64,000 nucleotides of DNA from a virus. The position numbers and the translations under genes were made by a program. The notes beneath the pieces were generated by a model. The model was not told the origin of the DNA and searched no databases. It worked only from the letters and a program-made list of their open reading frames with translations. Shown here piece after piece: positions 4,579 to 31,319 of the stretch. The DNA is taken from positions 8,038 to 72,037 of the IMG/VR virus record IMGVR_UViG_3300037470_001029. One strand, 5' to 3'. Each line of letters begins with the position of its first letter. Position 1 is the stretch's first letter.

Positions 4579-4929
4579 CTAAACCTCGATCAGTTCAAGG
4601 TTGCACTCGTACTGCCCGATGTCGAGCATCGGCAGGTCGATGTCGTTCGGCCCGAAGATCATGGTGTGGTTCGTCACGACCAGCACACCGTTGACCTCCC
4701 GCGAATAAATGTAGTTGAAAGTGATGGCGCGGTTTGCGTCGTAGAACGCCCTCAACGTCTCGTAGGCGGCTCCCTTGAGCCAGAGGTGCAGGCTGAGATC
4801 CAGCTTGCGCCCCGTGCTCGTCATGCGCGCCTTGACGCTGTTCGCCCGCGTGAGCGAGACGATTTTCGGGTCGCGCCACCGCTCCGACGTGCCCCTGGCG
4901 ATGGTCGGAAGGGTCGGGAAATCAGCCAC
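4579..4929 (-). CDS. Minor tail protein (gpM-like position)
   Basis: 116 aa; position downstream of the tape measure gene; overlapping start and stop. Confidence 0.55.
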   Translation of the reverse strand: MADFPTLPTIARGTSERWRDPKIVSLTRANSVKARMTSTGRKLDLSLHLWLKGAAYETLRAFYDANRAITFNYIYSREVNGVLVVTNHTMIFGPNDIDLPMLDIGQYECNLELIEV

Positions 4930-5455: not shown

Positions 5456-5457
5456 CG

Positions 5458-9018: not shown

Positions 9019-9431
9019 TTCTTCGCCTTGTTCTTTATGGACAGGTACACGGCCTCTAGCGCGTCGAGCATGTCGTTCTCAAAGGGGGTGAAAACGATCC
9101 CGCGCCTGCGCGCCCAAGCCTCGACCCCCTCATCGGTGATCGGGTTGACCGAGTAGCCATTGGTTGTGCGCCGCTTGTTCATCCTCTTGAAATACTCCCA
9201 AAGATACTTGACCTCTTCCGGGCATGGAATGAACGTGAGCTGCTCTGGCATGCGCTCAGGGGCAAAGTCGTGCTGCCTCCAGTAGCTGTACAATTGCTCC
9301 CTGAGCGTCGATCCATCTTCCTGTACCTCCGATAACGTGGTCTCCTGTCCTGCGTGGCCGATCAGGCCACTGTCTGGGATTGCTTGCCCTTCACCGTCGA
9401 CGGCTCCCCAGAATCCGACGAGGTATTCGTA
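9015..9431 (-). CDS. Tail assembly chaperone, gpT part (reached by -1 frameshift)
   Basis: -1 frame overlapping the 3' end of the gpG-like ORF, with no good start of its own. YLWEYF...NPIT...AWARRRG motif is typical of gpT parts. Confidence 0.7.
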   Translation of the reverse strand, partial: YEYLVGFWGAVDGEGQAIPDSGLIGHAGQETTLSEVQEDGSTLREQLYSYWRQHDFAPERMPEQLTFIPCPEEVKYLWEYFKRMNKRRTTNGYSVNPITDEGVEAWARRRGIVFTPFENDMLDALEAVYLSIKNKAKK

Positions 9432-9832
9432 AAAACCTGCTCGGCTTCGATTGCCTGGAGCGTCTTGAACCGCCACGTCGGACGCTTGGCGAAGATCTTC
9501 TTCAGGGTGTCTTCGTTGGGCGGCATCGGCTTGCCGTCATCGAGGAAGCCGTACACCTCCTTGAGGCACGCCGAGACGAGGGCGAGCTCCCGCTTCTCGG
9601 TCAGCAGGACCAGCTCCTGCGCGCCGGGCTTCGTCGCCGCCTCGATCGCACGGCCGCGGCGAGCCGCCTTCTGCACGTTGCGCACGCGCCACGCGCGATC
9701 GGCCTCCTGGTACTCGTCCGAATTGACGCCGACGACCTTGAAGCCGTCGGTCGGGTTACCATCCTCGTCGAACAAGAGAGGTACGTCGATCAGGTCTTCC
9801 TCGCTGCTTTCCTTCAGGTCTTTCAGGTCCAT
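9362..9832 (-). CDS. Tail assembly chaperone (gpG-like)
   Basis: ATG 9832 with AAGGAG RBS; lies between the tail tube and tape measure genes. Confidence 0.8.
   Translation of the reverse strand: MDLKDLKESSEEDLIDVPLLFDEDGNPTDGFKVVGVNSDEYQEADRAWRVRNVQKAARRGRAIEAATKPGAQELVLLTEKRELALVSACLKEVYGFLDDGKPMPPNEDTLKKIFAKRPTWRFKTLQAIEAEQVFTNTSSDSGEPSTVKGKQSQTVA
9431..9437 (-). promoter_or_regulatory. Putative -1 ribosomal slippery site G-GTT-TTT
   Basis: CAG GTT TTT ACG in the gpG frame; a -1 slip gives V-F-Y-E-Y-L in the gpT frame. Confidence 0.6.
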
Positions 9833-9946
9833 CGTCTTCTCCTTGGTTGCTTCCGGTGACCGGCCCACCTCCTCCTTGCAAGGGGGAGAAGGGTCCCGAG
9901 CGAAAAGTCGGCAGGCCGGGCCGGAAGCGGGTTGAAGCGGCCGGCA

Positions 9947-11227
9947 TTACGCCGCCGCGGAATCCTGCACGGTCAAAATGGTCTTGTCCCACGCGAGCGC
10001 CGCATCGCCATCGCCGTTGATCTCGGCGGTGAACGGGTAGGTGCGCATGATCGCCTTCAGCCCGTCGTCCGGCGTGTCGCCCATCAGGGCGATCTTGCCG
10101 AGCGTGAACGCCATGAAGTCCGCCGTCGCGCTCGTGTCGACCGCGGCGACCACGGCGAGGCTCACCTTGGTGCCGGCGTCGAAGATCGCCTGCAGGACCG
10201 TGTCGTCGAACATCGCGGTGAACGATCCGTTCACCTTGACGTTGCCGTGGTTGAAGTCCGGCGAGGCCGGGTTGCCGATGGAAGCGCCCACCGGGGTCAG
10301 GCTGCGGTCGACGGACAGCGACAGGCCGGTCACGTGCTCGACCAGAACACCGTTGATGTAGATCGCGCCGTTGACGGCCTGCGAAACGCCGGTCGTCGTC
10401 TCGGCCGCCGGGGTAGTGAGCACCTGCGAACTGCCGAGCGTGCGAACCCCGAGCCCTACCAGGTCGAACGCGACCCCCGACGCGCCCGCGGCCGGGATCG
10501 AGAAGTCGATCTTGTTGGACTTGATGTCCGGGAACAGCTCGCTGCGCGCCTTGTCGCTGTACCACTCTTCCCAGGTGAAGAAGTCGTTCGTGTGCGCCGT
10601 GAGCGGGGCGAGCGAGATCTTGCCGACGACGGTGAACGTGACTGAGCCGGTCTCCGGGGCCTTCGGCGCGACTGCGGTGCCGTCCAGGAACTTGCCGGTC
10701 ATGTCGCCGGCGGTCAGCGCCGTGATCCAGAAGTTGCGGTCGTTGTTCGCCGTCGCCGTGGTGGTGAAGCCTGTCCAGCGCCCGACCATCCCGACCTTGA
10801 GCCCTGCGGCGAGGAACCCGGCAGAGCCATCGACGAACTGCGGCCCCGCAGCCTGCGACGTGATGTCGGTCCCGGCGACCAGCGGCGTCACCGCCGCGAA
10901 ATCGGCCATCAGCACAGAGGCGATGATCGGCGAATAGGTGCCGGCCGAGAGCAGGCAATCGAGCTTGAGCCCGGTGTCCTTCTGCCCGAACACCACGCCG
11001 GTATCCTGGCGGTGGCTCACGATCTCGTCGAGGGTCGTCGACTGGCGCGTCGCGGTGGCGACCGACGTGCGACGGCGGACGATCTGCCCTCCGGCGCCGG
11101 ACTCCGGCACGCCCAGGCCACCGGCCTGTTTCTTGAAAACCGTCTGCTTGTAGAGGCCCTGCGCGGGCGACAAACCGAGGAGGAGCCCCGCGCGCTGGAG
11201 ATACTGAACGATCAACTTGAGTTTCAT
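9947..11227 (-). CDS. Major tail tube protein with an 18-aa N-terminal leader
   Basis: 426 aa; GAAGGAG RBS; AQGLYKQTVFKKQ...RRRTS...DEIVSHRQ tube-like N-terminus; position before the chaperones. Confidence 0.85.
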   Translation of the reverse strand: MKLKLIVQYLQRAGLLLGLSPAQGLYKQTVFKKQAGGLGVPESGAGGQIVRRRTSVATATRQSTTLDEIVSHRQDTGVVFGQKDTGLKLDCLLSAGTYSPIIASVLMADFAAVTPLVAGTDITSQAAGPQFVDGSAGFLAAGLKVGMVGRWTGFTTTATANNDRNFWITALTAGDMTGKFLDGTAVAPKAPETGSVTFTVVGKISLAPLTAHTNDFFTWEEWYSDKARSELFPDIKSNKIDFSIPAAGASGVAFDLVGLGVRTLGSSQVLTTPAAETTTGVSQAVNGAIYINGVLVEHVTGLSLSVDRSLTPVGASIGNPASPDFNHGNVKVNGSFTAMFDDTVLQAIFDAGTKVSLAVVAAVDTSATADFMAFTLGKIALMGDTPDDGLKAIMRTYPFTAEINGDGDAALAWDKTILTVQDSAAA

Positions 11228-11251
11228 TTGCGTGACTCCTTCGTCTTTGGT

Positions 11252-11617
11252 TTACTTTTCGGGCGTCGCGTTACGCCGCGCCACGTGCACTTCGCTCGGG
11301 TCTCCGCCGTCCGCCGCAGCGACTTGGGCCTCACCCTTGGCGATCTTCTCCCTGGCCGCCGCTGCCTTGGCCTCGTTCTCCTTGAGCAGCTTCTCGCCCG
11401 CGGCCCTGCGCTTGGCATGCACGCGGGCCTGCTCCGGCGTGGGCTCGACAGGAGAGTTCGCCTCGTCCGTCTTGACGAGCCGCTCGAACTCAGCCTTCTC
11501 CGCAGCCGGCGTGCCCTTCGGCCACAGTGCGGAGAATCCGCCCTTGTCGCTGAGCATGCCCTTGGCATTCTCGATCGTCGCCTCGGTTTTCTTGCCCTTT
11601 GCATCGAAGATCCACAT
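11252..11617 (-). CDS. Hypothetical protein
   Basis: 121 aa; GAAGGAG RBS; fits the operon. Confidence 0.6.
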   Translation of the reverse strand: MWIFDAKGKKTEATIENAKGMLSDKGGFSALWPKGTPAAEKAEFERLVKTDEANSPVEPTPEQARVHAKRRAAGEKLLKENEAKAAAAREKIAKGEAQVAAADGGDPSEVHVARRNATPEK

Positions 11618-11639
11618 GGCCGTCTCCTTCGTTGGAAAA

Positions 11640-12044
11640 TTAAGCTACCCAGGCGTGAAAAGGAACCCTTACGACGAGCGACCATCGGTCGCCGTCAGGG
11701 ACGCCGTTGCCTACCTCGGCAGGCTTGTTAATAGAAGTGTTGATCCCCGAATGCGTCAGCGTCAACGCCTTCGGGAACCAGTCGCCGATCGCCTTTGCGC
11801 GGGCCGCGGCGTTGATCGAGCCCTGGTTCTGCGGGTACATCAGCGTCACCTGCAGGTAGCCTTGCTCGAACCGGCCCTTGCCCCATTCCGCGTTGTCGGG
11901 GCGCGCGAACAGGACGTGCGACTTCTGGTAAGGAACCGTTACCGCCGGCGGCGCGAAGGAGACGTTCTCCCACGCGGTAGCCAGCGACGGCGCCATCGCG
12001 TTCAGGCGGTTTTCGAGCGCGGAGCGGACGGCGGCCTGGCTCAT
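11640..12044 (-). CDS. Tail terminator-like protein (DUF4128-like)
   Basis: MSQAAVRSALENRL...TAWENVSFAPP...GYLQVTLMYP; ATGA overlap with the upstream gene. Confidence 0.75.
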   Translation of the reverse strand: MSQAAVRSALENRLNAMAPSLATAWENVSFAPPAVTVPYQKSHVLFARPDNAEWGKGRFEQGYLQVTLMYPQNQGSINAAARAKAIGDWFPKALTLTHSGINTSINKPAEVGNGVPDGDRWSLVVRVPFHAWVA

Positions 12045-12514
12045 GCCAGTCCTTGCGCGGCGCCGGCGACAATCTGCTGGAACTCGATCACAGTAATGTG
12101 CACCATGCCGGCCGGCGCCTGCGTAGACCACCCGTCCTCGAGCCTTTGCCCGTAAGGCAAGTTGTTCGTGATGATGAAATTGCCGCCGGCGACCCTCTCA
12201 GGGATCGCGCCGATTATCCTCATCGTCGAGACGTTGCTCTCTGCCGGGCTCGGGTCGATGTCGGGCAGCTCGTTCGACGGCACCGAGTTGTTCCCCCCCT
12301 GCCAGTTCGCGCGGAACCTGCCGCCGACGTAGCCGGGAGGGGGCGGAGACTTCCACAAGTCGCCGTCTCCGACCGGCGAGAGCTCTACCAGCCGCGTGCC
12401 GACGTCGATGATCGTCTTGCGCACCGCGGTGTCCGCGTTCTTCCCCGCCTTGGCGGCGAACGCCGCGAGCTGAAGGCTGAACGAGTCGGACCGGTTGTAG
12501 TAGCCGCGAGCCAT
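12041..12514 (-). CDS. HK97 gp10-like tail completion protein
   Basis: SPVGD...GGRFRANWQ...NNLPYGQRLEDGWSTQAPAGMV motifs. Confidence 0.8.
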   Translation of the reverse strand: MARGYYNRSDSFSLQLAAFAAKAGKNADTAVRKTIIDVGTRLVELSPVGDGDLWKSPPPPGYVGGRFRANWQGGNNSVPSNELPDIDPSPAESNVSTMRIIGAIPERVAGGNFIITNNLPYGQRLEDGWSTQAPAGMVHITVIEFQQIVAGAAQGLA

Positions 12515-12837
12515 TATCTCCGCTTCTTCTTGAAGATAGACGACGACTTCTTCTTGGACATCGGTCCGGTGGCAGGCAAATGCAGCGCCCCGCGGGTAAG
12601 CGGATTCGGGCGACGCAGGTCGGGCACGCCGGGACCACGCGTGATTGGATTCGGTCTGCGCAGGTCAGGCACTCCAGGGCCGCGTCGGATGGGGTTTGGA
12701 CGCCGCAGGTCAGGAATCCCGGCCCCTCGCGTTATGGGGTTTGGCCGGCGAAGGTCCGGCACCCCGCGACCGCGGCTCAGCGGATTCCGTTGCCGCGCTA
12801 CCTTTGCCGCCCTTCTTGCCGCTTCGCTCCAAGCCAT
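12514..12837 (-). CDS. Basic repeat protein starting MAWSEAARRAA (sixth member of the MAWS family)
   Basis: ATG 12837 with AGGAG RBS; 107 aa; 15-aa tandem repeats; Lys/Arg-rich tail. Confidence 0.75.
   Translation of the reverse strand: MAWSEAARRAAKVARQRNPLSRGRGVPDLRRPNPITRGAGIPDLRRPNPIRRGPGVPDLRRPNPITRGPGVPDLRRPNPLTRGALHLPATGPMSKKKSSSIFKKKRR
12583..12790 (-). repeat. 45-bp coding tandem repeat, about 4.5 copies (PNPITRGPGVPDLRR)
   Basis: Visible in the translation; DNA copies differ mostly at synonymous positions. Confidence 0.85.
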
Positions 12838-12898
12838 GTCGATCTCCTGTGGTTCTTGCGCGCCCAATAAAAAGGCGGTCATGAATATGGAAAGCATT

Positions 12899-13267
12899 TC
12901 ATTTTCTCAAATGAAGCATGTACAGCACCACGGTTCCTGCGGGGTTCGTCTCTCCGATTCCCTTAATCACGTAGACCGCGCCGTCGGCGAGGATGATCAG
13001 ATCCTCGAGCCCTGGCACGATGCCCTTTTCCATCAGCAACTTCTTGTCGCCGACGAGGATTAACCCGCCCGGGCCATTCTCCTGTCCTGCCCTGAAGTCG
13101 AACAGCGCTGCCTTGCGCGCTACATCCACCGGCCCGCCACCGGTCATCCCACCCGTGTCCGGGTCGTAGGTGCCAGGCGCGTTATTGCGCAGCGTCACAA
13201 CCTGACCGAATTCCTCTAGCAGATCGGCGGAAACAACGGCAAGTTCGTCGTAGAGAGGATTCGTCAT
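12899..13267 (-). CDS. Head closure / head-tail joining protein
   Basis: LLEEFGQVVTLR...YDPDTG...GDKKLL...NPAGTVVLY motifs; synteny. Confidence 0.75.
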   Translation of the reverse strand: MTNPLYDELAVVSADLLEEFGQVVTLRNNAPGTYDPDTGGMTGGGPVDVARKAALFDFRAGQENGPGGLILVGDKKLLMEKGIVPGLEDLIILADGAVYVIKGIGETNPAGTVVLYMLHLRK

Positions 13268-13791
13268 GCGCGTGCCACCCGCATATTAAGGGCGCTGCCG
13301 GTCAGGTAAGGCGAGAGCATTGCATCGATCGCCCTAAAACGCGGATATTCGCTCGAAGCCGGGTCGTAGGTCACACTGATTTCTCCGACGCGCACAGAAG
13401 ACTTCGAGCGCGTCAGATCTGGGGAAAGCTCACCGGCCGCGGCGCGCAGCGCCAGCTCGGCGCAGGCGTTCTTGACCTCGGCAGGCACGATGTTGTCGGC
13501 AACGAGGTAAGGTTGCTCGCCGACGCCGCCCTGGATGAACGGCTCTAAGTAGACGTAAGCCCTAGGCCAATCGAGGGCCTGCGTAGCATCCTTGCGGAAC
13601 CCTTTCCAGCGACCGCGGAACATCTGCAACATGTAGTCAGTCGCGCGGCGCAGTGCTTGCTCCATCTGCGCCTCGGTAAGCAGTGCCCACGTCGATGCGC
13701 CGCGCGCCGCGTGGTATGCGGAGACGTCGGCGACCGAGACGTAGCTCTCGGCGTTCGCCTTCGCGGTGCCGTCTTCGACTTCGAGGCTCAT
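13264..13791 (-). CDS. Head-tail adaptor (DnaT-like family)
   Basis: MSLEVEDGTAKANAESYVSVAD...QALDWPR...VPAEVKNACAELA motifs. Confidence 0.8.
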   Translation of the reverse strand: MSLEVEDGTAKANAESYVSVADVSAYHAARGASTWALLTEAQMEQALRRATDYMLQMFRGRWKGFRKDATQALDWPRAYVYLEPFIQGGVGEQPYLVADNIVPAEVKNACAELALRAAAGELSPDLTRSKSSVRVGEISVTYDPASSEYPRFRAIDAMLSPYLTGSALNMRVARA

Positions 13792-17832: not shown

Positions 17833-18858
17833 TTACGCGACGACGGCGAGGTTGCCGATGTGGCGCAGGCGGGTGAGGGAGCGGCCGTTGTAGACGGCGA
17901 ACCCGTTGTACCACTCGACGCGGGTCCGATACATCGGAGAAGCCTCCAGCTCGCCCAGGTCGCGCACGTCGACGCCGCCATTCTGGATGCCCTGGATCGC
18001 GCCATCGCCCATGCTCAGCACGTAGATCGACGTCGCCGTCGCGGTGCCGGAGGCCGCGGCCTCGTTGAAGCCGAGGATCGCCGCCTGCGTGTTGTCCAGG
18101 TCCACCGTCAGGATCGGCAGGTCGTTGTAGATGGTGATGCGCTTGCCGAAGGAGTCCTTGTCGTAGGTGATGAAGCCGCCGACGGTGTAGTTGCGCGCGG
18201 CCGCGGTGATGAGCCGGCGCATCGCCTTGCTCATCAGCAGGTGGGTCGGGTTCAGCGTCTGGTCGATCGCCTCATCGAGCTTGCCGAGCGAGAGCGCGGC
18301 GCCGTTGGCCGTCGAGCCTGCGCTGATCACCTGCGCTCCGGTGGCTCGCGTCTGCAGCCCGTCGAACTCGCGCGGATCGGTGGCGGTGTCGCCCTTGATG
18401 AACTTCTTCGTCCACGCCAGCGCCAGGGCGCGGACCTTCATGGCCTCGTGGGTGGAGCGCTGGGCCATGCCCATCGTGTCGACGATGAACTTGTCGACGT
18501 CGAGGTCGCCGCCGGCGATCACCAGCGACTCGGTGAGGGGATTCAGCACGCCGGTCGAGGGCGTGTAGGCCTCGTTCACCCCGCGGAAGCCGACGCCGGG
18601 CAGCGACTCTTCCCGGTTGTACTTCATCGCGTTGCCGGGGATCGTGTCGAAGGGCAGATTGGCGAGGATGTCGCTGGAGCCCGCGTAGAGCTCGATGATG
18701 GCCTGGCGGATCACGTCGCCGGTCTCGAGCTTCGCAGCCTCGACGAGAGTCAGGCCGCCGAGCACGACGCCCTGGCGGTACATCAGGTTGTTGAGGAACG
18801 CGGAGAGCGCTGCGATGACCAGCATGACCGCGAGATGGAGTTTCTTGAGGGCAGCCAT
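17833..18858 (-). CDS. Major capsid protein with a 34-aa hydrophobic leader
   Basis: ATG 18858 with AAAGGAG RBS; LTLVEAAK...YNREESLPGVGFRGVNE...GGDLDVDKFI...EFDGL...YRTRVEWY motifs. Confidence 0.92.
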   Translation of the reverse strand: MAALKKLHLAVMLVIAALSAFLNNLMYRQGVVLGGLTLVEAAKLETGDVIRQAIIELYAGSSDILANLPFDTIPGNAMKYNREESLPGVGFRGVNEAYTPSTGVLNPLTESLVIAGGDLDVDKFIVDTMGMAQRSTHEAMKVRALALAWTKKFIKGDTATDPREFDGLQTRATGAQVISAGSTANGAALSLGKLDEAIDQTLNPTHLLMSKAMRRLITAAARNYTVGGFITYDKDSFGKRITIYNDLPILTVDLDNTQAAILGFNEAAASGTATATSIYVLSMGDGAIQGIQNGGVDVRDLGELEASPMYRTRVEWYNGFAVYNGRSLTRLRHIGNLAVVA

Positions 18859-18902
18859 GGAGGCTCCTTTCGAATCGGTTGAATGGGAAAATCGTTTGCC
18901 GC

Positions 18903-19007
18903 TCGCCCATCCCGGACGATTCGCCGAAGTCCCCGCATCCCGCGGATCTCCAAGCAACTTCTTTTCTGGGTTCGCAGGCCAAAGCACCTGTCCCAGATGC
19001 TTTGGCC
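18903..19007 (-). promoter_or_regulatory. Three GGGAY-loop hairpins upstream of the major capsid gene
   Basis: GGCCAAAGCATCT-GGGAC-AGGTGCTTTGGCC, TCCGC-GGGAT-GCGGG and TCGTCC-GGGAT-GGGCGA. Confidence 0.65.
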
Positions 19008-19101: not shown

Positions 19102-20148
19102 TTAGCGCTTGGCCCCTGCCTGCAATTCGCGCGCTTTCGTCAGCCGATCGGTCGGAGACAATCCCGAGAAATCGGGCGCGCCGCGCACGGTGCGCTTGTC
19201 GCCCTTGGCGTCGCCGCCGCTCCCGCCTGCCGGGAACCAGTGTGGGCAGTCCGCGCGGCGCTCCTCGATCCAGTCCTCGACCGAGAAGGGCGCCTTGCCC
19301 TCCTTGTTGAGCACGACCGTCTCGCCGTCCTCCTCGAACTGGACAGCCTTGAGCTCGTCGTTCAGCGAGAAGATCTGCCTGGCGCGCAGCAGCGCATCCT
19401 CGATCGCGCCCGGGAACATCCCCGCGTTGGTCGCCGCGGCGCGCACCTTGTTGTCGATCGCGTGCTCCATCAGCGTCGAGGCCACCTCCAGCGCGCCGTC
19501 GCGCTCCTCGCCCGCGGTCTGCGCCTGGCTCATCAGCTCCTCGCGCATCTTCTGGGTGCGGGCCTCCATCACCTTGTCGATGTGGCCGGCCTGGATCATC
19601 TTGCGCTCTTCCTCGCTGGCGAACTGCGACAGGAGCTCGCGGGTCTTGACCGGGTCGATGCCGTCGAACTGCTTGAGCTGCGTCTCGTACTCCTCCCTAA
19701 CCTTCTTGATCTTGTCTTCCGAGTTACGGCGCTCGTTCTCCGCGACCTTCTTGAGCCCGGTGACATCTTCGACGTCGACCTTGGAGTGGTCCAGCTTGAA
19801 CTTCTTCGTCGCCGGGTCCTCGGCGTACCAGGCGCGCATGAACTCCGGCACCGCCTCGAGCTTGTCGACCTCGGGGGCGATGGCGCCGAGAGACAGCCCG
19901 CAGCGCTCGATCCATGACGGCTCGAACGGGTCCGCCGCCATCAGCTTCAGCGGCTGGAGGGGACGCCCGAACGTCAGGACGCTGAGCCACAAGCGGCCGG
20001 TGAACAGGAGGTAGATCCGCTCGCGGAGCGTCAAGCCCCAGCACGAGATGGCCTGCCCGTTGTCGCCGACGTGCGCCGGCAACGGGATGTACGGCTTCTG
20101 GTCCTTCGCGATCACGATGTTCTGCTGCTTGAATTCGACCGGCTTCAT
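19102..20148 (-). CDS. Head scaffolding protein with an 88-aa N-terminal extension
   Basis: Coiled-coil core EDVTGLKKVAENER...FDGIDP...CPHWFPAGGSGG; directly upstream of the capsid gene; AAAGGAG RBS. Confidence 0.85.
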   Translation of the reverse strand: MKPVEFKQQNIVIAKDQKPYIPLPAHVGDNGQAISCWGLTLRERIYLLFTGRLWLSVLTFGRPLQPLKLMAADPFEPSWIERCGLSLGAIAPEVDKLEAVPEFMRAWYAEDPATKKFKLDHSKVDVEDVTGLKKVAENERRNSEDKIKKVREEYETQLKQFDGIDPVKTRELLSQFASEEERKMIQAGHIDKVMEARTQKMREELMSQAQTAGEERDGALEVASTLMEHAIDNKVRAAATNAGMFPGAIEDALLRARQIFSLNDELKAVQFEEDGETVVLNKEGKAPFSVEDWIEERRADCPHWFPAGGSGGDAKGDKRTVRGAPDFSGLSPTDRLTKARELQAGAKR

Positions 20149-20172: not shown

Positions 20173-20373
20173 CCGCGCATCCCGCGCGGTAAGGTTTGCC
20201 CGAATCCCTCGAGCCCTACTTGCTTTTTTTCTTGCCCTTCTGGAACGGCGGCAGCTTGCCCTTGCCCTTCGGAGCTTCGGACTTGCCTCTGCTGCCCTTC
20301 TGGTAGTTCTTCAGCCCTTCAGGTACCTTTCCCATGATCGCCTCCTAAGTTTTGCTCGCGCGATCCCTGCGCG
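20173..20373 (-). promoter_or_regulatory. GGGAT-loop hairpins upstream of the scaffold and small basic genes
   Basis: CCGCGC-GGGAT-GCGCGG (20173-20189), GCTCGA-GGGAT-TCGGGC (20198-20214) and a looser CGCG-CAGGGAT-CGCG (about 20359-20373). Confidence 0.6.
20216..20335 (-). CDS. 39-aa Lys-rich peptide MGKVPEGLKNYQKGSRGKSEAPKGKGKLPPFQKGKKKSK
   Basis: Read manually; TAGGAGG RBS 5 nt upstream of the ATG. Confidence 0.6.
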   Translation of the reverse strand: MGKVPEGLKNYQKGSRGKSEAPKGKGKLPPFQKGKKKSK

Positions 20374-20792
20374 TAGGGTTCACTTCTGAGAGTATATCCT
20401 GGCTTGTTCTCCAGCCGACGCGCCCGCACGTTGTCGGTCGCGTCGAAGCCCAGCTTGCGCAGCGCGCTGGCCAGCGCCATCGGATCTCCGTGGCTCGCCG
20501 CGTAATCGTCTGCCTCGAGTTCTTGCCTGTAGCGGCGCGACGGCGACGCGCGCATGAAGAAGCAGACCAGCAGGAGATTCTTCCAGATGTGGCGGTGGTG
20601 GCGGTGCCCCTCCTCGTGCAGACGCACGGCGTGCCACTCGTCCGGCGTGAGGCGGTCTACGTAATCGTCTGGGATGATGATGCGGAAGCCGTTGAAGGAT
20701 GCGCCCTGCGGATTGGCGTAATACATGCCGACTAGATGCAGCGCGATCCACAAGACCCAGATGACGGCGAAGACTGTTCCGGCAATGACCAT
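20319..20792 (-). CDS. Membrane-anchored zinc metallopeptidase (M48/M56-like)
   Basis: N-terminal transmembrane helix; LTPDEWHAVRLHEEGH (HExxH); QELEADDYAA...ALASALRKL. Confidence 0.8.
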   Translation of the reverse strand: MVIAGTVFAVIWVLWIALHLVGMYYANPQGASFNGFRIIIPDDYVDRLTPDEWHAVRLHEEGHRHHRHIWKNLLLVCFFMRASPSRRYRQELEADDYAASHGDPMALASALRKLGFDATDNVRARRLENKPGYTLRSEPYAQGSREQNLGGDHGKGT

Positions 20793-22768: not shown

Positions 22769-23199
22769 TCCGCCTTCTTCATTCTGTTGGTCATGCCCTC
22801 TTGCAGCATCAGGCAGGAGCCGTAGTCGTGGCAGACGAGCCTGCCCTTGAGCATTCCATAGTTGTACCGCTTGAAGTCGGTCAGGTAAGCGGGCATTCTC
22901 TCGGGGAACTTCGTTGCCATCGTCGTGCGGCGCTGCATCAAGATCCCGCCGCTCTGCGAGATCCAGACACACGGGGCGAACCACCTGGCATGGGGAGTTC
23001 CCTTGACCATATCCCACACCTGCCACTCGAAGATATTCTGGAAACGGTCCTTGTTCTGGTCTTCGATCTTAATAACGATGCCATCGTCGATCGCAGACTC
23101 GTACACGTGCCGCGTCAGCCCGGTGCCGATCAGGGCGCCCGTTACGCTGACTGCCAGCTCGTGCTGAAGCGACGGGTTGTACAGGTGCGTATTGCTCAC
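22756..23199 (-). CDS. Minimal protein-kinase-like protein (147 aa)
   Basis: IGTGLTRHVY (Gly loop), VIK, NIFE, TDFKRYNYG (catalytic loop), HDYG (DFG-like); GTGA overlap with the portal stop. Confidence 0.7.
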   Translation of the reverse strand: MSNTHLYNPSLQHELAVSVTGALIGTGLTRHVYESAIDDGIVIKIEDQNKDRFQNIFEWQVWDMVKGTPHARWFAPCVWISQSGGILMQRRTTMATKFPERMPAYLTDFKRYNYGMLKGRLVCHDYGSCLMLQEGMTNRMKKAEWWD

Positions 23200-24758
23200 G
23201 CGATCGCCTTGCCAGGCTGGCCGCCGCCGGCCCCCGATTCGCCGAAAATCTCCTGCTGCAGGGCAAGCGCCGCGGCGTTCTGCTCCTGGATCTGCTGCTG
23301 GCGCTCGGCGATGCGCGCCTGCTCCTCTTCGAGGGTGACCTCCTCGGCCACGATCTCGCCGGCCTTCAGCAGGTTGAACAGCCCCTGGTCGGAGAGGCCC
23401 GGCGCGCCCTGCTGCCAGCCGCCCAGCAGCGCGGAGAGCATGGCGGGATCCATCGGGGCCGGGTAGAAGTCGCGGTTGAGCTCGACGAGAACCTTCGACG
23501 GGTCGGCCTCCGCCCACTCGGTGAACCACTTGAGCGCCTGCGTCATGCCGAGCGAGATGGCCTGCGCCATGCTCGACAGCGTCGACTCCTCGCCCTTGCG
23601 GTGGATGCTCGACGACTCGGCTGTCTCCACCGCCTTCTTCTGCGGCTCCAGCATGCGGGCGCCGAGGATGGCCATCTGCTGCTCCTCGCGGTTGAGCTTG
23701 TTCTCGAGGGTGCTCAGGCCCGCCCCGCTGAACTCGACGAAGGACGCCTGCGCCTTCTCGTTGGCAGAGACGATCGCCGTCTCGCTGCCGATGTAGACGT
23801 CCTTGGGGTTCCCCGCGGCGTCGAGCTCACGCTTGAACCCGGCGAGGAACAGGGTGGGCAGCGCCGTGAAGTGGCAGCCGTGCGCGTAGTCGGCGCTCGT
23901 GCGGTAGTGCGCGAGGTTCAGGTCGACCAGATCGATCAGCGGCGGCTCGTCGACGTCGGGCCCGACCTCGTCGGTGCCCATGATCACGAGCGGGATGAAG
24001 CCGAGCTTCATACTGCGCATTTCCGGGTAGATCGGCGGGCCGGGAACGTAGGCCGTCGCATTGCCCTTCATCCCGGTAGTCGACTTGGTTAGCTGCGGCT
24101 TGAACACGCGCTGCCGGTAGACCGGCGACGCGGGGGTGTTGTCGCCGGGGCTCGCCGGCAACTGCTCCAGGTCGAGCACGCGATACGTGTCCTGCTCCTT
24201 GGACTCGAACTCGTCCTTCGGATTGTCGACGCTCTCGGGCTCCTTCAGCACGACCTGCGTCAGCACCGTCTGGTTGTTGACCCGCCCGGTGCGCCAGTTG
24301 ATGACCGACTCCGCGCGGTAGAGCAGCATCGTCGGGCGAAGGTTCATCCGCCTGGCGTCGGCCTGCGTCAGTCCCTTAGGGGCGGTCGGGTAGTCGACCA
24401 GCACGGCGATGCGCCCGACCGTCAGCGCGTTCTCGCTCACGTCCTGGAGGAGGAGCTGGAACGGCTGGCCCGCGGCGTCCACGTCCTTGAGCAGCTCCTC
24501 TACCGCGGCAGGGACCTCCACCTTTGGGGGCTTGCGGAACATCATCCCGAGCAGACCGGAGATAGTACGCCACGTGGCGTTGTAAAACGTGGAGCGCAGC
24601 ACCATCGCCTTGTAATCATTGGAGGTCTGCGCCTTTAGCTTCGGCAGGTACTTCTCGCCGGCCTGGTGCACGGCGTCCTGGCCTGCGGCCACGTCGCGGC
24701 AGCGCTCCCACTTCTTGGAAAACTCCTGATACTGCCTGTGCTGAGTATTGACGGGCAT
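23196..24758 (-). CDS. Portal protein (DUF4055-like)
   Basis: 520 aa; YLPKL...RSTFYNATWRTI...PPLIDLVDLNLAHYRTSADY motifs. Confidence 0.9.
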   Translation of the reverse strand: MPVNTQHRQYQEFSKKWERCRDVAAGQDAVHQAGEKYLPKLKAQTSNDYKAMVLRSTFYNATWRTISGLLGMMFRKPPKVEVPAAVEELLKDVDAAGQPFQLLLQDVSENALTVGRIAVLVDYPTAPKGLTQADARRMNLRPTMLLYRAESVINWRTGRVNNQTVLTQVVLKEPESVDNPKDEFESKEQDTYRVLDLEQLPASPGDNTPASPVYRQRVFKPQLTKSTTGMKGNATAYVPGPPIYPEMRSMKLGFIPLVIMGTDEVGPDVDEPPLIDLVDLNLAHYRTSADYAHGCHFTALPTLFLAGFKRELDAAGNPKDVYIGSETAIVSANEKAQASFVEFSGAGLSTLENKLNREEQQMAILGARMLEPQKKAVETAESSSIHRKGEESTLSSMAQAISLGMTQALKWFTEWAEADPSKVLVELNRDFYPAPMDPAMLSALLGGWQQGAPGLSDQGLFNLLKAGEIVAEEVTLEEEQARIAERQQQIQEQNAAALALQQEIFGESGAGGGQPGKAIA

Positions 24759-25268: not shown

Positions 25269-25624
25269 GGCTGCTGCACCTTGACGCGCAGCTCGCGGTT
25301 GACATCGTCCAGCTCAGCCTTGTAGCGGAAGAACTGCTTCAGCTCCCACTGGTTGATCATGCGCGCGTCGCGCTTTGCCTCCAGCTCGAACACCTTGTCC
25401 TCGAGCGAGTTCTTGCGCTGGCGCAGGAACCCCGCGTCGGTGTACGCGCGCTGGGCGGCCAGCTCTTTTTTGAGCTCCTTCTTCGCCGCGGCGACGGCCT
25501 CCTCGGCCCTCTTGACGTCGGCGGCCTTTGCGTAGCGCGCGTCGATCGCCAGGGTGGCAATCACGATCGCGGCGACCAAGCTGGCGAGCCACCAGATAGT
25601 CTTCTTCACTGCGGGATCGATCAT
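25265..25624 (-). CDS. Single-TM coiled-coil membrane protein (holin/spanin-like position)
   Basis: N-terminal transmembrane segment WWLASLVAAIVIATLAI followed by a charged coiled coil. Confidence 0.5.
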   Translation of the reverse strand: MIDPAVKKTIWWLASLVAAIVIATLAIDARYAKAADVKRAEEAVAAAKKELKKELAAQRAYTDAGFLRQRKNSLEDKVFELEAKRDARMINQWELKQFFRYKAELDDVNRELRVKVQQP

Positions 25625-26334
25625 TGTGGCCTCGCAGTCATCTTTTGCTCGACTGCCGCGCAGGCCTCACCCTCCTCGTGGATCAGGCGCTCCAGGTCGG
25701 CGAGCGGCATGTAGAAGGCGCCGGCCTTGCCCCAGTTGTCGCCCCACGAATTCTCGAGGGTGGCGAGCGAGCGCGTGGCGTTGATCCCCCGGAGCAGGTA
25801 GGCGTGGCCGCCGAGGACCGCGGCGCCCGGCTCGATCTTAACGATCCCCTCGGGATCCGGGTGCTCGAACGAGCTGTACCAGTTGGTGCCGACGACGCAC
25901 GGACCGTTGGTCAGCACCCACTCGACCACGGTGGACAGGTCGAACGCCCAGAGGTAGCTCTTGAGGTGCCCGAGGTCGGTCAGCACTTTGGCGCCGGCGC
26001 GCACGCTCGTGCCCCCATCCATGGAAGGGTCCCAGTCGCCCATCGCGGCCTCGGCATCGTTGTCCGCCCACGGATCGATCGCGACCGCCCTGCGGTAGAT
26101 GTCGAACGGCGACGGCCCGCTCTTCTCGGTCTGCATCGGCGCGCAGCGCAGGAAGTTCTTCCACGCGTGGCCGACGCAGGTGCTGGTCAGGCCCTGGTCG
26201 AGCGAGCGCCCGTTGACCCGCCACGTCTTCGCGCTCGGAAGCAGCACCTTGTCCGCGGTGGCGAGCTTGCGGCGCATCAGGTACTCGCGGTCGCGCGGGT
26301 CGACGGCGATCCGGCGGCCCAGTCCCTTGTTCAT
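25621..26334 (-). CDS. Papain-family (C1-like) cysteine peptidase
   Basis: DQGLTSTCVGHA, GGHAYLL and ENSWGDNWG carry the catalytic Q/C/H/N residues. Confidence 0.85.
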   Translation of the reverse strand: MNKGLGRRIAVDPRDREYLMRRKLATADKVLLPSAKTWRVNGRSLDQGLTSTCVGHAWKNFLRCAPMQTEKSGPSPFDIYRRAVAIDPWADNDAEAAMGDWDPSMDGGTSVRAGAKVLTDLGHLKSYLWAFDLSTVVEWVLTNGPCVVGTNWYSSFEHPDPEGIVKIEPGAAVLGGHAYLLRGINATRSLATLENSWGDNWGKAGAFYMPLADLERLIHEEGEACAAVEQKMTARPQ

Positions 26335-26970: not shown

Positions 26971-28254
26971 TCAGACTCCTCTTATGACGACGCGCTCGAT
27001 GCGGTCGTGGACGATCGGGTGCTCGTAGGCTATCGGGTAGGTCGAGGCGTCGTTCTGATGGTCGTGCCCGCTCTTCTTGTCGGGCTCGCCGTTCTCGTCG
27101 TAGGCCTGGCTCTCGAAGCAGCGCGCCACGGTCGGGCACTCGCGATCGTTGACCCAGAGCCTGGCGATCTCGAACTGCTTGTTGGTGGCGTTGACGCGGT
27201 CCTTCACGGCTGGGTTGGCGTTATCGGCGCGCACCTCGAACCCTGCCTGGTCGAGCAGCGCCAGGTCGGACTTGCTGGCGTCGACCGTCTCGCGGTTCTT
27301 GCCGCTCGGGTCCGGGTAGACGATGATGCGGTGCCCCTCGTCCTTCCAGCGCTCCGTGATGATGCGGATCATGTCGGGCGTGTCGAGCACGTCCTTCAGC
27401 TCGGCGACCGCGTGCCACCCGTTCGCCCGCGGCACGTAGACCGTCGCGGCCATCTTCGTGACGTTGAAGTCCATGCCGATCAGCAGCGCCTCGGCGTCCG
27501 CGCCATTCTTGCGCGCGCGGATGGTCTCCCTCGACCTGCACCGGACTCGGTCGTAGTTCCTGTAGACGGTGCCCGCGGTGAGGTTGACGAACTTGCCGTC
27601 CAGGTACGCCTGCCGCAGCTCCTCGGTGTAGGCCTCGTAGAGAGACTGGATGTAGTCGTCCGGCAGGTTCTCCTCGTTGTCGTAGGTCGACGCCTGGACC
27701 AAGCCGTAGTTCTCCTTGAGCGCGGGCCGCTCCTCCGGGTCGGAGACGAAGAGCTTGTGCGTCGCGCGGAAGCCCTCCGGCGTCGTCGTGACGTCGATGC
27801 CGTTGCGCAGCCCGGGCCGCTTGATCCGCATGCGCGCCAGGATCTTGCGCCACGCAAGACGGGCCTTGTTCATCGGCAGCGTGTCGAGTTCGTCGACCAG
27901 GGCGTGGCCCACGTTGAAGCCGATGATGGTCTCCGGCTTCTCCATGGAGCGGCAGATCGTCGTGCCGCGGTAGCGGGCGCCGCTGTAGAAGTGGACCTCC
28001 TTGTTGCCCTCCATGGCCTTCGTACGCAGGCCGAACTCGAAAGCGACCTCGTCGATCGTCGGGTAGAAGATGTCGCGGATAAGCGAGTAGGTCGGCGCGA
28101 AGTACCCAGAGTTCACGCGCGGCCACTCGAGGTGGTGGGTGCAGGTCGCCATGCTGCCCGCCCAGGTCTTGCCCGAGCCGAAGCCCCCGACGTAGGCGCG
28201 GTTCTTGGTTTCGAGCGCCAGGAACTCGCACTGCGGGAGGTTTGCGTGGGGCAT
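26971..28254 (-). CDS. terL: Terminase large subunit
   Basis: Walker A GGFGSGKT, Walker B ALVDE, TTTPEG, nuclease motifs IGMDFN and HDHQNDASTY. Confidence 0.95.
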   Translation of the reverse strand: MPHANLPQCEFLALETKNRAYVGGFGSGKTWAGSMATCTHHLEWPRVNSGYFAPTYSLIRDIFYPTIDEVAFEFGLRTKAMEGNKEVHFYSGARYRGTTICRSMEKPETIIGFNVGHALVDELDTLPMNKARLAWRKILARMRIKRPGLRNGIDVTTTPEGFRATHKLFVSDPEERPALKENYGLVQASTYDNEENLPDDYIQSLYEAYTEELRQAYLDGKFVNLTAGTVYRNYDRVRCRSRETIRARKNGADAEALLIGMDFNVTKMAATVYVPRANGWHAVAELKDVLDTPDMIRIITERWKDEGHRIIVYPDPSGKNRETVDASKSDLALLDQAGFEVRADNANPAVKDRVNATNKQFEIARLWVNDRECPTVARCFESQAYDENGEPDKKSGHDHQNDASTYPIAYEHPIVHDRIERVVIRGV

Positions 28255-28613
28255 CAGAGCTTTGCCGCCTCGTCCTCTAGCTGCGCAGCTCTCCTCAGAT
28301 AAGCCCTAGGCTTTAGCCCGCGCTGCGCCAGCCCGCGGAGCTCGGCCGCCTGACGCAGGAGCGCGTCGCGCCTAGCAGGCTGCGCAGCGGACGCGCGCCT
28401 CAGGCCGCCCTTGCCGAACAGCTGAACCCTGACGCGCTCCTGCGCCCTGGCCAGGGCGGCCTTAGACATCCGGCCGCTCGGAGAGTCGAGCGCGAGCGCA
28501 TCGGAGAAGGCCCTCGGCCCTCCGCGCTTGGGCCGCAGGCGCCACGGCTTTCCAGCCGCGCGCCTGCGGCGCATTTCAAGGGCGGCGGCTCGCGCCGCGT
28601 CGGACCAGGCCAT
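28254..28613 (-). CDS. Arg-rich MAWS-family protein 5
   Basis: Starts MAWSDAARAAALEMRRRR; TGATG overlaps on both sides. Confidence 0.8.
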   Translation of the reverse strand: MAWSDAARAAALEMRRRRAAGKPWRLRPKRGGPRAFSDALALDSPSGRMSKAALARAQERVRVQLFGKGGLRRASAAQPARRDALLRQAAELRGLAQRGLKPRAYLRRAAQLEDEAAKL

Positions 28614-28912
28614 CAGTATCCGTACCTTCTGCGATGCGGATCTTTGGGCCCGTACTTGAGCTCGAATTTACGGGCTTTTTCCGCGACGATGTTAGCCTTG
28701 AGCCGCTTGAGCACCTTCGAGTAACGCTCGACGTTGCGGTTCGCGGCGCCCGCCGGGTAGCGGCCGCCCACGCCCATCGATTGGAGCTCGCCCAGGTTGC
28801 GCTTCGCCGCGGAGATCTGCGCCGCGTAGGAGCGAGGGCCCCTCTTGCGGCCCTTCGCCCTGCGGCGCCTGGCCTCCGCGGCCGCGGCCCGGGCCGCGTC
28901 TGACCAGGCCAC
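28613..28912 (-). CDS. Arg/Lys-rich MAWS-family protein 4
   Basis: GTG start with GGAGG RBS; MAWSDAARAAAAEARRRR; 27 of 99 residues are R or K by manual count. Confidence 0.8.
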   Translation of the reverse strand: MAWSDAARAAAAEARRRRAKGRKRGPRSYAAQISAAKRNLGELQSMGVGGRYPAGAANRNVERYSKVLKRLKANIVAEKARKFELKYGPKDPHRRRYGY

Positions 28913-28915
28913 GGC

Positions 28916-29452
28916 TCAGCGCCTCCCGCCGATCGGGCCGAACTCCGCCTGCACCATGCGCCCGGCGATCACCCTGGCGTGCAAGTTCCTGTACCTGGCG
29001 TCGCCGCCCGACCTGCGCGCCTGCGCCCTGGCAGCCTTGAGCGTCCTGGCGAAGACGTCGCGCCTCTGGAAGACGCCGGGCGCGGCCTCGTGCATCGACT
29101 GCGACCGCAGGCCGCGGAGCCTGGCGGCCGCCTCGAGGTGCCTGGCCGAGTCCCTCTTGACCAGTTGCCCGAGCCTGGCGTGGAGCCTGGCCGTGGCCGC
29201 GTACCTGGAGGCGGTCATGCCGCCCATGCCGCCGACCAGCTCGGAGGACGGGTGGCGCGCCTCGCGCTCCGCCATCGCCAGCAGCGTATTGGACCCGACC
29301 CTGGCGCGCAGCCTGGCGCCGTCCTTGCCGGGCGTCGCGAGCAGCCTGGCCATTTCGTCCCGGTTCTGCCCGACCGTGGGCACCTTGCGCCGCCTGGCAT
29401 TCCTGCGCCTGGCTTCCAGTGCCGCCGCCCTCGCCGCGTCGCTCCATGCCAT
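28916..29452 (-). CDS. Arg-rich MAWS-family protein 3
   Basis: Starts MAWSDAARAAALEARRRNARRRK; GGGGAG RBS. Confidence 0.8.
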   Translation of the reverse strand: MAWSDAARAAALEARRRNARRRKVPTVGQNRDEMARLLATPGKDGARLRARVGSNTLLAMAEREARHPSSELVGGMGGMTASRYAATARLHARLGQLVKRDSARHLEAAARLRGLRSQSMHEAAPGVFQRRDVFARTLKAARAQARRSGGDARYRNLHARVIAGRMVQAEFGPIGGRR

Positions 29453-29453
29453 G

Positions 29454-29885
29454 TCAGTTCTCCCCGGGAGTTCTGCGGCCGGCCCGCCTGGCCGCGGCGC
29501 GAACCTTAGAATTTACCTTCGAGCTGTCCCCGCCGAAATTCCTGGCGGCCAGCACGGCGCGCCTCGCCGCGGCCTTGCGATTGCGGCCGCGCTGCCTGAG
29601 GAGTTCTGCCTTGTCGGAGAACCTGCCCGGCGGCCGCACCGCGCGCAGGTCGGAGGGCCTCAGCGTCTCGACCGGGACTATGCGGCCGCGCGTGCCCTGG
29701 ACCGCGGCGTGGACGCGGTCGAACCCGCCGGTGTCGTAGTGCGCTTCCCTCACGGTAAACCTGATCCCGCGCTCGCCTGGCCCGGGCCTGGCGTATCTGG
29801 CCGTCTGGCCTGGCTTTAGCCTCCGCGCGAGGCGGCGTCGCCTCGCCTCCAGTGCCGCCGCCCTCGCCGCGTCGCTCCAGGCCAT
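29454..29885 (-). CDS. Arg-rich MAWS-family protein 2
   Basis: True start at ATG 29885 with GAGGAGG RBS; MAWSDAARAAALEARRRRLARRL. Confidence 0.8.
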   Translation of the reverse strand: MAWSDAARAAALEARRRRLARRLKPGQTARYARPGPGERGIRFTVREAHYDTGGFDRVHAAVQGTRGRIVPVETLRPSDLRAVRPPGRFSDKAELLRQRGRNRKAAARRAVLAARNFGGDSSKVNSKVRAAARRAGRRTPGEN

Positions 29886-29887
29886 AG

Positions 29888-30241
29888 CTAGATCCTCCTC
29901 TTCATGCGCCGGACGCGCTCGGCCAGCGTCGAGCTGCCCCAGTGCCGGTCGCGGTGAAAGTTCCGCGCAGCGGTCGATTGCCGCGCCGAGTCCATCACTT
30001 GCGAGGTAGAGCGGCCCTCGACTATCCAGCCGCGGCTCGTGAGGATGCTCTCCCCGGTCTTCTTGCCCTTCCTGATGGCGCGGATTTTGCGCGCCAGCTC
30101 TGCGCGGAACGCGGGCTCGCCGGGTCCGGCGTTGTACTTCGTCAGGCTTCGCAGCGCATGCTGGGGAAAGCGCTGCTTTGACTTCGAGTGCGCCCTGCGC
30201 GCTTCCAGCGCCGCCGCCCTCGCCGCATCTGACCATGCCAT
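29888..30241 (-). CDS. Arg-rich MAWS-family protein 1
   Basis: Starts MAWSDAARAAALEARRAHSK; begins 4 nt after the terS stop. Confidence 0.8.
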   Translation of the reverse strand: MAWSDAARAAALEARRAHSKSKQRFPQHALRSLTKYNAGPGEPAFRAELARKIRAIRKGKKTGESILTSRGWIVEGRSTSQVMDSARQSTAARNFHRDRHWGSSTLAERVRRMKRRI

Positions 30242-30245
30242 GGTG

Positions 30246-30854
30246 TCACCCCTTCCGACGCCGCGCGTCCTTGAACTCGATTGTCACCGCGACGGGAGGC
30301 GGGGCCTCGCCGTCGTCCTCTGGCTGCGCGCCCTTGTCCTTGGAGTAGAGGCCGAAGTGCTTCATGGCCTGGTCGCGGGCCGCGTGCCTGGCGGGGAACT
30401 TGACCTTGGCGGTGGTGACGCTCAGGAGGGTCACCTCGTCCTTCGAGCCCTTCTTTCCCTTCAAGACCTTAGAAACCTGGTCGACGTCGACGCCCTCTAA
30501 CTCGAGGCGCACCTCGTCGGGCATGTCCTGCACCCTCTTCAGGGTCCCATCCTCGTTGTACATCAGGCCTGGGTCGAAGCGCATCGCCCTGGCGAGCGAC
30601 CTGATGACCTCCTCCGCGGTGAGGGCAACCATATCCCCAAGTTCTTTGGAGCGGAACTCGATCATTTCCTTGACCCAAGGGTCTTTGAGAATCGCGTAGG
30701 CGCATTCTCCGGCGGTTTTCGGGCTGTAGCCCACTGCCCTGGCCGCGGCGCTCGCGTTGCGGTTGTTCGCGAAGTATGCATCCACGAACAAGCGCTTGCG
30801 CTCCTGCGACCTAGTCTTTGATGTTCCTGCCTTCGCCCGCTTTGCTGCCGCCAC
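30246..30854 (-). CDS. terS: Terminase small subunit
   Basis: RLFVDAYFANNRNASAAARAVGYSPKTA HTH and the LTAEEVIRSLAR...FDP motif. Confidence 0.88.
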   Translation of the reverse strand: MAAAKRAKAGTSKTRSQERKRLFVDAYFANNRNASAAARAVGYSPKTAGECAYAILKDPWVKEMIEFRSKELGDMVALTAEEVIRSLARAMRFDPGLMYNEDGTLKRVQDMPDEVRLELEGVDVDQVSKVLKGKKGSKDEVTLLSVTTAKVKFPARHAARDQAMKHFGLYSKDKGAQPEDDGEAPPPVAVTIEFKDARRRKG

Positions 30855-31289: not shown

Positions 31290-31319
31290 TTTACAAGTTG
31301 CTCGTTGAAAAAATATAAT
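31290..31319 (+). promoter_or_regulatory. Sigma70-like promoter
   Basis: TTTACA-N18-TATAAT upstream of the replication operon. Confidence 0.55.

Follow-up and report, generated by a model that had tools for sequence, protein, structure and literature searches.

Why should successive genes of a viral late operon, with bodies that do not resemble one another, begin with the same short peptide? This question is raised by the window analysed here, a 64,000-nucleotide (nt) stretch of the IMG/VR record IMGVR_UViG_3300037470_001029 (bases 8038-72037 of a 72,037-base-pair (bp) viral metagenome record that CheckV rates as 100% complete), in which five minus-strand genes encoding proteins of 117, 143, 178, 99, and 119 amino acids (aa) separate terS from terL. 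These five array genes begin with MAWSDAARAAA[LA]E[AM]RR (5/5), and together with a sixth gene at 12514-12837 they conform to MAWS[DE]AAR.AA..AR; the gene list, the DNA pattern, and the repeat search agree with an initial annotation of this DNA that had described the coupled array and the sixth copy. We propose that the shared start, hereafter the tag, is a portable docking (address) helix by which exchangeable cargo is brought to the head during assembly, a proposal that draws on analogy with known systems and that we consider a serious possibility while stopping short of calling it probable.

Conservation of the tag peptide

The array genes, in order from terS, are t5 (29888-30241), t4 (29454-29885), t3 (28916-29452), t2 (28613-28912), and t1 (28254-28613), and pairwise comparison of their first 18 codons gives 83 synonymous and 19 non-synonymous codon differences. 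Nucleotide identity is 61%-83% over nt 1-54 and then 23%-44% over nt 55-120, and the bodies compared by BLASTP exhibit no similarity (best E 0.14). Since the tag DNA has diverged at synonymous sites while the peptide has been held, selection acts on the tag peptide rather than on the DNA, as the initial annotation had maintained, and selection on recombination homology is not the explanation. The most similar starts, those of t3 and t4, are 83% identical in nt 1-54 and share an exact run of ~32 nt (read by eye from the codon rows). Such a run would be long enough for phage recombinases, and it could be available for cassette exchange.

Differences between t2 and its homologue in locus L027 fall at 15, 17, and 41 sites of codon positions 1, 2, and 3, respectively, and amount to 33 synonymous-only and 18 non-synonymous codons. 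Because these differences concentrate in codon position 3, the minus frame is coding. A non-coding array, or an array read as an antisense 324-aa open reading frame (ORF) at 28845-29819 on the plus strand, is ruled out by the homologues, the codon-position pattern, and the ribosome-binding sites; the plus-strand ORF is a shadow of Ala/Arg-rich coding sequence. A pac site or a DNA repeat bound by TerS is ruled out as well, both by conservation that tolerates synonymous change and by tag copies that lie far from the terminase genes.

Distribution of the tag, its bodies, and its genomic slots

The consensus of the tag is M-A-W-S-D-A-A-R-x-A-A-[LA]-E-A-R-R-x-[HKR]. Across 153 unique small tagged proteins, W3, A7, and R8 are invariant and A2, S4, D5, A6, A10, A11, R15, and R16 are nearly so, while positions 9, 12, and 17 vary and conservation fades past about position 22. 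AlphaFold2 (AF2) models place a tag helix at residues 5-24 in the t5 family and at residues 5-21 in a member that resembles ADP-ribosyltransferases (ART), and the tag is accordingly modelled as a portable alpha-helix of ~20 residues.

A word-based search with the six proteins recovered metagenome proteins with the same start and different bodies, and a DNA pattern scan of IMG/VR yielded 59 loci, several of them with 3-7 copies, in which the motif either opens an ORF preceded by a ribosome-binding site or is embedded in a very long ORF. The tag profile A2 (33 columns, 81 copies; pattern hits in L019 and L044 were omitted as likely chance frames) had 655 matches at E<=1e-3, 11 of which reach E<=1e-10, among 1.84 billion cluster representatives. 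The best 150 of the 655 matches were characterised: 104 are short (46-178 aa) and open with the tag at residue 1, and the other 46 (148-1948 aa) hold one to six internal or C-terminal copies. Composition was analysed for 148 of the 150, with P0003 and P0012, both also small and tagged at residue 1, omitted. The tag is portable, as first suggested from the window, and the searches of phage and metagenome proteins found it on more than 100 bodies that BLAST does not relate to one another. Prokaryote genomes all but lack the N-terminal form: a scan of 185,579 gave 2 stretches, both on phage-like contigs of metagenome-assembled genomes (MAGs) that carry phage genes, and naming a host from the MAG labels was rejected. 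The tag has no match among Pfam, PHROG, and NCBIfam families or PDB chains, and a literature search for the motif strings found no occurrence in the papers covered. No passage on this motif was found in the main article by Iyer et al. (2017, PMC5512222); the supplementary domain lists of that paper, which lie outside this search, may bear on whether the motif was noticed.

The internal copies (n=112) conform to the extended consensus [V/T/L]-x-[K/N]-[A/T/G]-W-[S/T]-D-[E/A]-A-R-x-A-[A/S]-x-[E/A]-A-R-[R/K], and the motif can even form the last residues of a protein, as it does in a 925-aa ORF of locus L029 and in P0032. Because internal and extreme C-terminal copies occur, the motif appears, judged by sequence, to be an autonomous unit that requires neither a free N-terminus nor a downstream body. 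A metagenome protein of 178 aa, P0102, is a small tagged protein with a second tag copy near its C-terminal third, and it is possibly an intermediate between stand-alone cassettes and multi-motif proteins.

The bodies of the 153 small proteins (residues 21 to the end, E<1e-3) fall into 109 BLAST components, 94 of them singletons. The largest component has 25 members, t5 among them, and its alignment shows two further short conserved blocks. The description of the bodies as unrelated is therefore correct for the five array bodies compared with one another, and too strong if taken to mean that all are orphans. Body isoelectric point (pI) exceeds 9 in 101/102 small representatives and in 50/52 proteins from viral loci plus the window; Arg and Lys make up 21.6% of residues, and Asp and Glu 5.5%. 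Cysteine occurs 4 times in 12,670 body residues compared with a rate of 0.7% in other window proteins (P ~6e-33 at that rate), and 149/152 bodies are free of it. By these sequence features, the products of the six genes are members of a large and so far undescribed class of small (~50-180 aa), very basic, cysteine-free late proteins of uncultured tailed phages. Whatever the mechanism, a tag on more than 100 BLAST-unrelated bodies, the high pI, and the near-total lack of cysteine need explaining.

Domains could be recognised in a few of the bodies. Pfam finds ART-PolyVal in 3/108 small tagged proteins (best E 1.3e-11) and DUF3990 in 2/108, and ParB-like PHROGs have 2, 1, and 1 members among the 108. 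The AF2 model of an ART-like member has low confidence (predicted local distance difference test, pLDDT, 62), and its structural neighbours are mostly chains of ADP-ribosyltransferase fold (top Z 6.9, root-mean-square deviation (rmsd) 3.0, 83 aligned); most of these alignments leave out the tag and begin near residue 20, and one of the neighbours is a cyanophage pre-ejectosome chain. According to the main text of PMC5512222, ART, 2H, and DdrB-like ParB domains are effectors that phages package and inject, solo or fused. As such, some of the identifiable cargo (ART, 2H, ParB-like) is, by domain assignment, of a type known or predicted to be packaged. None of these effector domains (ART-PolyVal, DUF3990, ParB-like, LigT) was found in the six window proteins.

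The late operon of the window runs on the minus strand with terS first, then terL, and then the remaining head, neck, and tail genes, and all 6/6 tagged genes of this genome lie in the structural arm. From terS to terL, the gaps or overlaps between consecutive genes are 4, 2, 1, 3, -1, and -1 nt, a GGAG-like Shine-Dalgarno sequence precedes every array start, and the five array genes are translationally coupled; within the array, no promoter-like or terminator-like site was found on the coding strand. When the structural proteins of the window were compared with the other loci by tblastn, tagged genes were located in the slots terS|terL, terL|portal, portal|MuF, MuF|scaffold, and between neck genes. 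Among the unique tagged ORFs of viral contigs, 39/46 lie at <=3 kilobases (kb) from a homologue of a window structural gene, on the same strand in 39/39 cases; two others (both in L016) are 3.0-3.3 kb from the portal gene, and five have no structural homologue in their locus. In five further records, two of them complete, 20/20 pattern matches (4, 4, 7, 1, and 4) fall, within each record, on a single strand, and the reversed pattern used as a control has no match.

Gain and loss of cassettes, which the initial annotation had suggested, is seen in the terS|terL slot: the window has five tagged genes there and L027 three, L065 has a lone 30-aa tag-only ORF, and other slots of the late operon are used elsewhere. 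This variable copy number indicates that the genes come and go as cassettes. Tag-only mini-ORFs of 30 aa were observed at 4892-4984 (plus strand) in L065 and from position 8020 (minus strand) in L023. L065 is a 54-kb MAG contig whose primase, terS, terL, and portal are close to those of the window, and its mini-ORF, the sole gene between terS and terL, looks like a remnant of cassette loss.

These observations bear on an explanation that involves no head at all, namely that the tag descends from a small helical protein resembling t5, of which it was the first helix, and has been kept mainly as a 5' start module (ribosome-binding site plus ~20 codons) for recombinational swapping of bodies, in which case the tag would have no common partner and the functions of the bodies would be unrelated or absent. 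We consider this improbable. It draws on the slot copy number of 1, 3, or 5, on the tag-only remnants, on the 83%-identical starts of t3 and t4 with their exact shared run, and on the t5-like bodies, which form the largest family (25/153). The AF2 model of that family is all-helical (pLDDT 79.9, predicted template modelling score (pTM) 0.65; pLDDT ~90 for the tag helix), and the tag helix sits in what may be one compact helical domain. A start module is difficult to reconcile with tag DNA that has diverged synonymously under a constant peptide, with retention of the tag on more than 100 unrelated bodies in several phage lineages, with repeats inside long proteins, where such a module is not needed, and with the strict composition rules (basic, cysteine-free) common to the bodies. 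No fold could be assigned to the t5-family model: Foldseek searches of PDB and BFVD gave nothing at E<=0.001, and the best VIA-align result (Z 5.4, rmsd 4.8, 75 aligned) was among generic helical matches.

Proposed docking in the phage head and competing explanations

If the tag is a docking helix, it would bind one common partner in the assembling head, and this binding would bring whatever follows the tag into the procapsid. The polycationic cargo would then be packed alongside the DNA and may exit together with it upon infection, while in other lineages helix repeats in long head-module proteins, some of them fused behind a prohead protease, would dock those proteins likewise. We infer docking, packaging, and injection from the peptide-level selection, the portability, the late-operon context, the common cargo profile, the cargo of packaged type, and the linkage of the motif to prohead proteases and proteins in the scaffold slot. 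The basic, cysteine-free profile is what would be expected of proteins packed with DNA in an extracellular particle. A complex prediction with the capsid protein, scaffold residues 82-348, and the 33-aa tag (score 0.00, mark 0.32) is evidence neither way.

The linkage to proteases comes from the 46 large motif proteins, in which Pfam identified LigT/2H in 2, ADPrib_exo_Tox and ART in 1 each, and Peptidase_S78_2 (XkdF), Mu-like_Pro, DUF2213, DUF5856, and WXG100 in 1 each. The motif begins 6 residues past an XkdF-type prohead protease domain in L059 and ~28 residues past a DUF2213 domain in L043, and in the large proteins it usually precedes acidic, His-rich helical stretches. In L029, a 1915-aa protein (7637-13384, minus strand) has a protease-like N-terminus (phrog_80, E 8e-6; Peptidase_S78 at E 0.004, below the cut-off) and six motif copies, each followed by His/Asp-rich helices, together with zinc-ribbon-like CxxC pairs. 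A GIY-YIG homing endonuclease gene (6853-7557) lies between this upstream gene and the major head protein (5034-6824), and further downstream of the latter come motif-repeat proteins of 925 aa and then 298 aa, with other ORFs between. A 1209-aa motif-repeat protein in L032 (5347-8976, minus strand) contains DUF5856 (E 3e-8) at residues 938-1019, a region that looks Dps/ferritin-like by eye. In the window itself, an M48-like peptidase gene at 20319-20792, between MuF and the scaffold, reaches 22.3 bits where the cut-off is 20.3, and it is also conserved in both L027 and L050, and a papain-like (C1) peptidase gene at 25621-26334, between terL and the portal, scores 20.0 bits against a cut-off of 20.7.

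It is also conceivable that the motif marks processing junctions, with a head protease cutting polyproteins just before it (h-x-[K/N]-[A/T/G], then W) and the stand-alone genes carrying it as a recognition element or propeptide for the same enzyme. Positions -4 (V/T/L) and -2 (K/N) are conserved upstream of the 112 internal copies, the stand-alone proteins begin exactly at position -2 (M-A-W), and the motif co-occurs with prohead protease domains. Set against this, the extreme C-terminal copies in the 925-aa protein of L029 and in P0032 have nothing to release, and the window head-module proteins that were scanned contain no recognised S78-type protease. We judge this explanation highly improbable, and it overlaps with docking rather than excluding it.

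Several considerations weigh against docking as the role of the tag. The motif is almost unchanged in phages with different protease families, and a universal ligand (DNA, RNA, a host factor, or the motif itself) would fit this better than a lineage-specific head protein. It occurs at N-terminal, internal, and C-terminal positions, unlike the capsid-targeting sequence (CTS) of phage T4. Many of the large motif proteins are acidic (pI 5-6) and His-rich rather than basic, and an identifiable domain is present in only a few percent of the bodies. In the t5 family, the AF2 model suggests that the tag could be part of the fold itself and not a free-standing label. Scanning of ten window head-module proteins brought up no recognisable prohead protease of HK97/S78 type, and with only the weak M48 and C1 matches in its place, no enzyme can be named for a 'load then clip' cycle. 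Presence in the virion, cleavage, and binding to head proteins are, for the tagged proteins, predictions from sequence.

Part of this evidence would suit a different role, in which the Ala-rich tag with its terminal Arg cluster is a nucleic-acid-binding or self-associating helix and the polycations coat, condense, or protect phage DNA or RNA in the infected cell, or help packaging to start, with no capsid addressing involved. Near-constancy across protease families is as expected for a universal ligand, and such a helix could function at any chain position; R8, R15, and R16 are invariant or nearly so and are followed by [RAM][HKR].K.K, nearly all of the bodies are basic, and the array of this genome lies between terS and terL. 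However, the best-conserved W3 and the alanines at positions 6, 7, 10, and 11 suit helix-helix packing more than phosphate contacts, and only ~3 arginines are fixed; classic arginine-rich motifs such as that of lambda N have more. The acidic large proteins do not fit this role, terS|terL is one slot of many, and a purely cytoplasmic function leaves the avoidance of cysteine unexplained. We thus regard a nucleic-acid-binding or self-associating tag as rather unlikely, and a docking helix for head cargo is the reading that we carry forward into the comparison with known systems.

The initial annotation had drawn an analogy with the internal proteins of T4, whose CTS is described in PMC3012670 as the only conserved part of diverse internal proteins. 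The analogy fits in form: the CTS proteins (IPI-III, Alt) and the window proteins are small, basic, and otherwise diverse late proteins with a short conserved N-terminal peptide, and in both systems the cargo set is variable, with ADP-ribosyltransferase as one cargo type, of the injected-effector kind (as described in PMC3012670 and in the main text of PMC5512222). It fails where position is concerned, as the window tag is a ~20-residue helix that is also found internally, at the C-terminus, and in repeats, so that a free N-terminus is not required; packaging here is moreover a prediction. Neither Pfam nor PHROG revealed homology of the six proteins to the T4 internal-protein or Alt families, no internal-protein family appeared in the PHROG tallies of the 108 tagged proteins, and no gp21-type protease or cleavage site was identified for the tag system. 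Given the lack of a family-level match, the different structure, the occurrence at any position, and the lack of an identified protease, the system is T4-CTS-like in form and not a member of the T4 CTS family.

The signals of P1 provide a second comparison. A reporter needs no more than the N-terminal 30 residues of DarB to be loaded into the head, and this signal is likewise N-terminal (<30 residues) and serves injected proteins that counter host defence (PMC9024508). That paper states that the Dar proteins have no signal consensus in common, in contrast to the one sequence found here on hundreds of proteins. Polyvalent proteins (Iyer, Burroughs, Anand, de Souza, and Aravind 2017), as presented in the main text of PMC5512222, appear to have a partly overlapping repertoire (ART-PolyVal, 2H phosphoesterase, ParB-like), are likewise encoded among late genes near virion genes, and contain the same domains both solo and fused. 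They are chains of 2-15 domains, whereas the window genes encode single small proteins (99-178 aa) with no known domain. The tagged window proteins are not polyvalent proteins, though part of the repertoire is common, and some larger motif-bearing proteins elsewhere may qualify as such.

Two further systems can be compared by description. The C-terminal region of the HK97 maturation protease, in work by Duda, Oh, and Hendrix in 2013, reportedly takes the enzyme and fused passengers into the procapsid; it is a short segment right behind a prohead protease domain, much as the tag motif lies 6 residues past the XkdF-type domain. Encapsulin cargo-loading peptides attach many unrelated cargos inside an HK97-fold shell by means of one short conserved peptide; these are usually C-terminal and extended, whereas the window tag is helical and no encapsulin is present here. 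The phrog_206/PF06810 scaffold family has no match to the tagged proteins, and the window scaffold (19102-20148) contains no motif copy.

More tentatively still, docking may be general. The helix could be a cargo-loading peptide of tailed-phage heads at large, read by a conserved feature of the procapsid interior and used both by stand-alone cysteine-free polycations and enzymes (including ADP-ribosyltransferases) and by protease-scaffold polyproteins in several uncultured lineages. We offer this extension with considerable reserve. If it were true, a phage could change its injected set simply by swapping cassettes behind the label, and the tag would be the phage counterpart of the encapsulin peptides. 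If the tag is a head-loading label, its sequence alone would suffice to find proteins that are packaged, and probably injected, across a large group of uncultured phages, and such proteins, mostly without known fold or function, would be candidate counter-defence or host take-over factors. The strategy of T4 and P1, a conserved address with variable cargo, would then have evolved once more, on a distinct peptide that is far more widespread and also serves as an internal repeat in head polyproteins, and the tag could provide a compact means of loading foreign proteins into phage capsids.

The six genes and their neighbours

All six tagged genes lie on the minus strand, and their products have a pI of 11.4-12.0 and contain no cysteine (0/6). 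The t5 gene (pI 11.9) starts 4 nt past the terS stop, and t4 (pI 12.0) includes an internal ATG preceded by GAGGAGG and has a homologue, P0005, with 55% identity. A partial homologue of t3 (pI 12.0) occupies the same slot in L027. The t2 gene begins with GTG, is 81% identical to the L027 gene/P0010, and exhibits a purifying substitution pattern. At both of its ends t1 shares 1 nt with a neighbour, its start with the t2 stop and its stop with the terL start; no homologue of the t1 body was found. The public gene call for t1, P0006 (71 aa), begins at an internal Met and misses the tag, and automatic annotation can therefore conceal tag membership. The sixth gene, t6, encodes 107 aa with the divergent tag MAWSEAARRAAKVAR and sits between two neck genes. 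Its body contains a 45-nt (15-aa) tandem repeat (window 12602-12771; 3.8 copies, 72% matches) with units of the type NP..RG.G.PDLRRP and a Lys-rich tail at the end.

At the DNA level, a degenerate pattern for the tag gives 6 matches in the window, the sixth at 12806-12837, and 0 in 100 shuffles. The repeat search independently recovers five minus-strand copies of a 42-nt tag-coding repeat (family D2), that of t5 at 30201-30242 and the others at 29845-29886, 29412-29453, 28872-28913, and 28573-28614, with 71%-100% identity to the reference and spacings of 299, 540, 433, and 356 nt. For the six proteins, Pfam and PHROG return no match with a meaningful E-value and no known domain, and NCBIfam returns no match; t3, t4, and the tag profile find no PDB sequence at E<=1, Rfam has no match in the whole window, and ESM Atlas has no usable match to t5. 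A tblastn search of GenBank phages with t5 produced only four chance matches to the body (E=7), and as the low-complexity filter may mask the tag, absence from cultured phages is not implied. Among the sequencing runs listed as containing this DNA, four are DNA runs, all of them from sediment metagenomes, and none is an RNA run.

The terS gene (30246-30854, minus strand), the first of the late operon, matches Terminase_2 (PF03592, E 7e-20) and phrog_51, and terL (26971-28254, minus strand) matches Terminase_6N (E 3e-24) and Terminase_6C. The late operon also encodes a portal (23196-24758, DUF4055, E 9e-42), a MuF protein (E 2e-11), the scaffold (phrog_206, E 3e-31), and a capsid protein (17833-18987, PF20911). 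The phages that host the tag, with their MuF protein, DUF4055-type portal, and phrog_206 scaffold, are siphovirus-like. The capsid ORF spans 384 aa from its first start and exceeds most homologues, many of which have 308 aa and cover ~89%-90% of the 341-aa query; probably, either translation begins at a more internal codon or the proteins of this clade are extended at the N-terminus. Finally, a strong sigma-70-like promoter match (11/12) is located at 31290-31319 on the plus strand, in an AT-rich divergent region between terS and the plus-strand early and replication genes.

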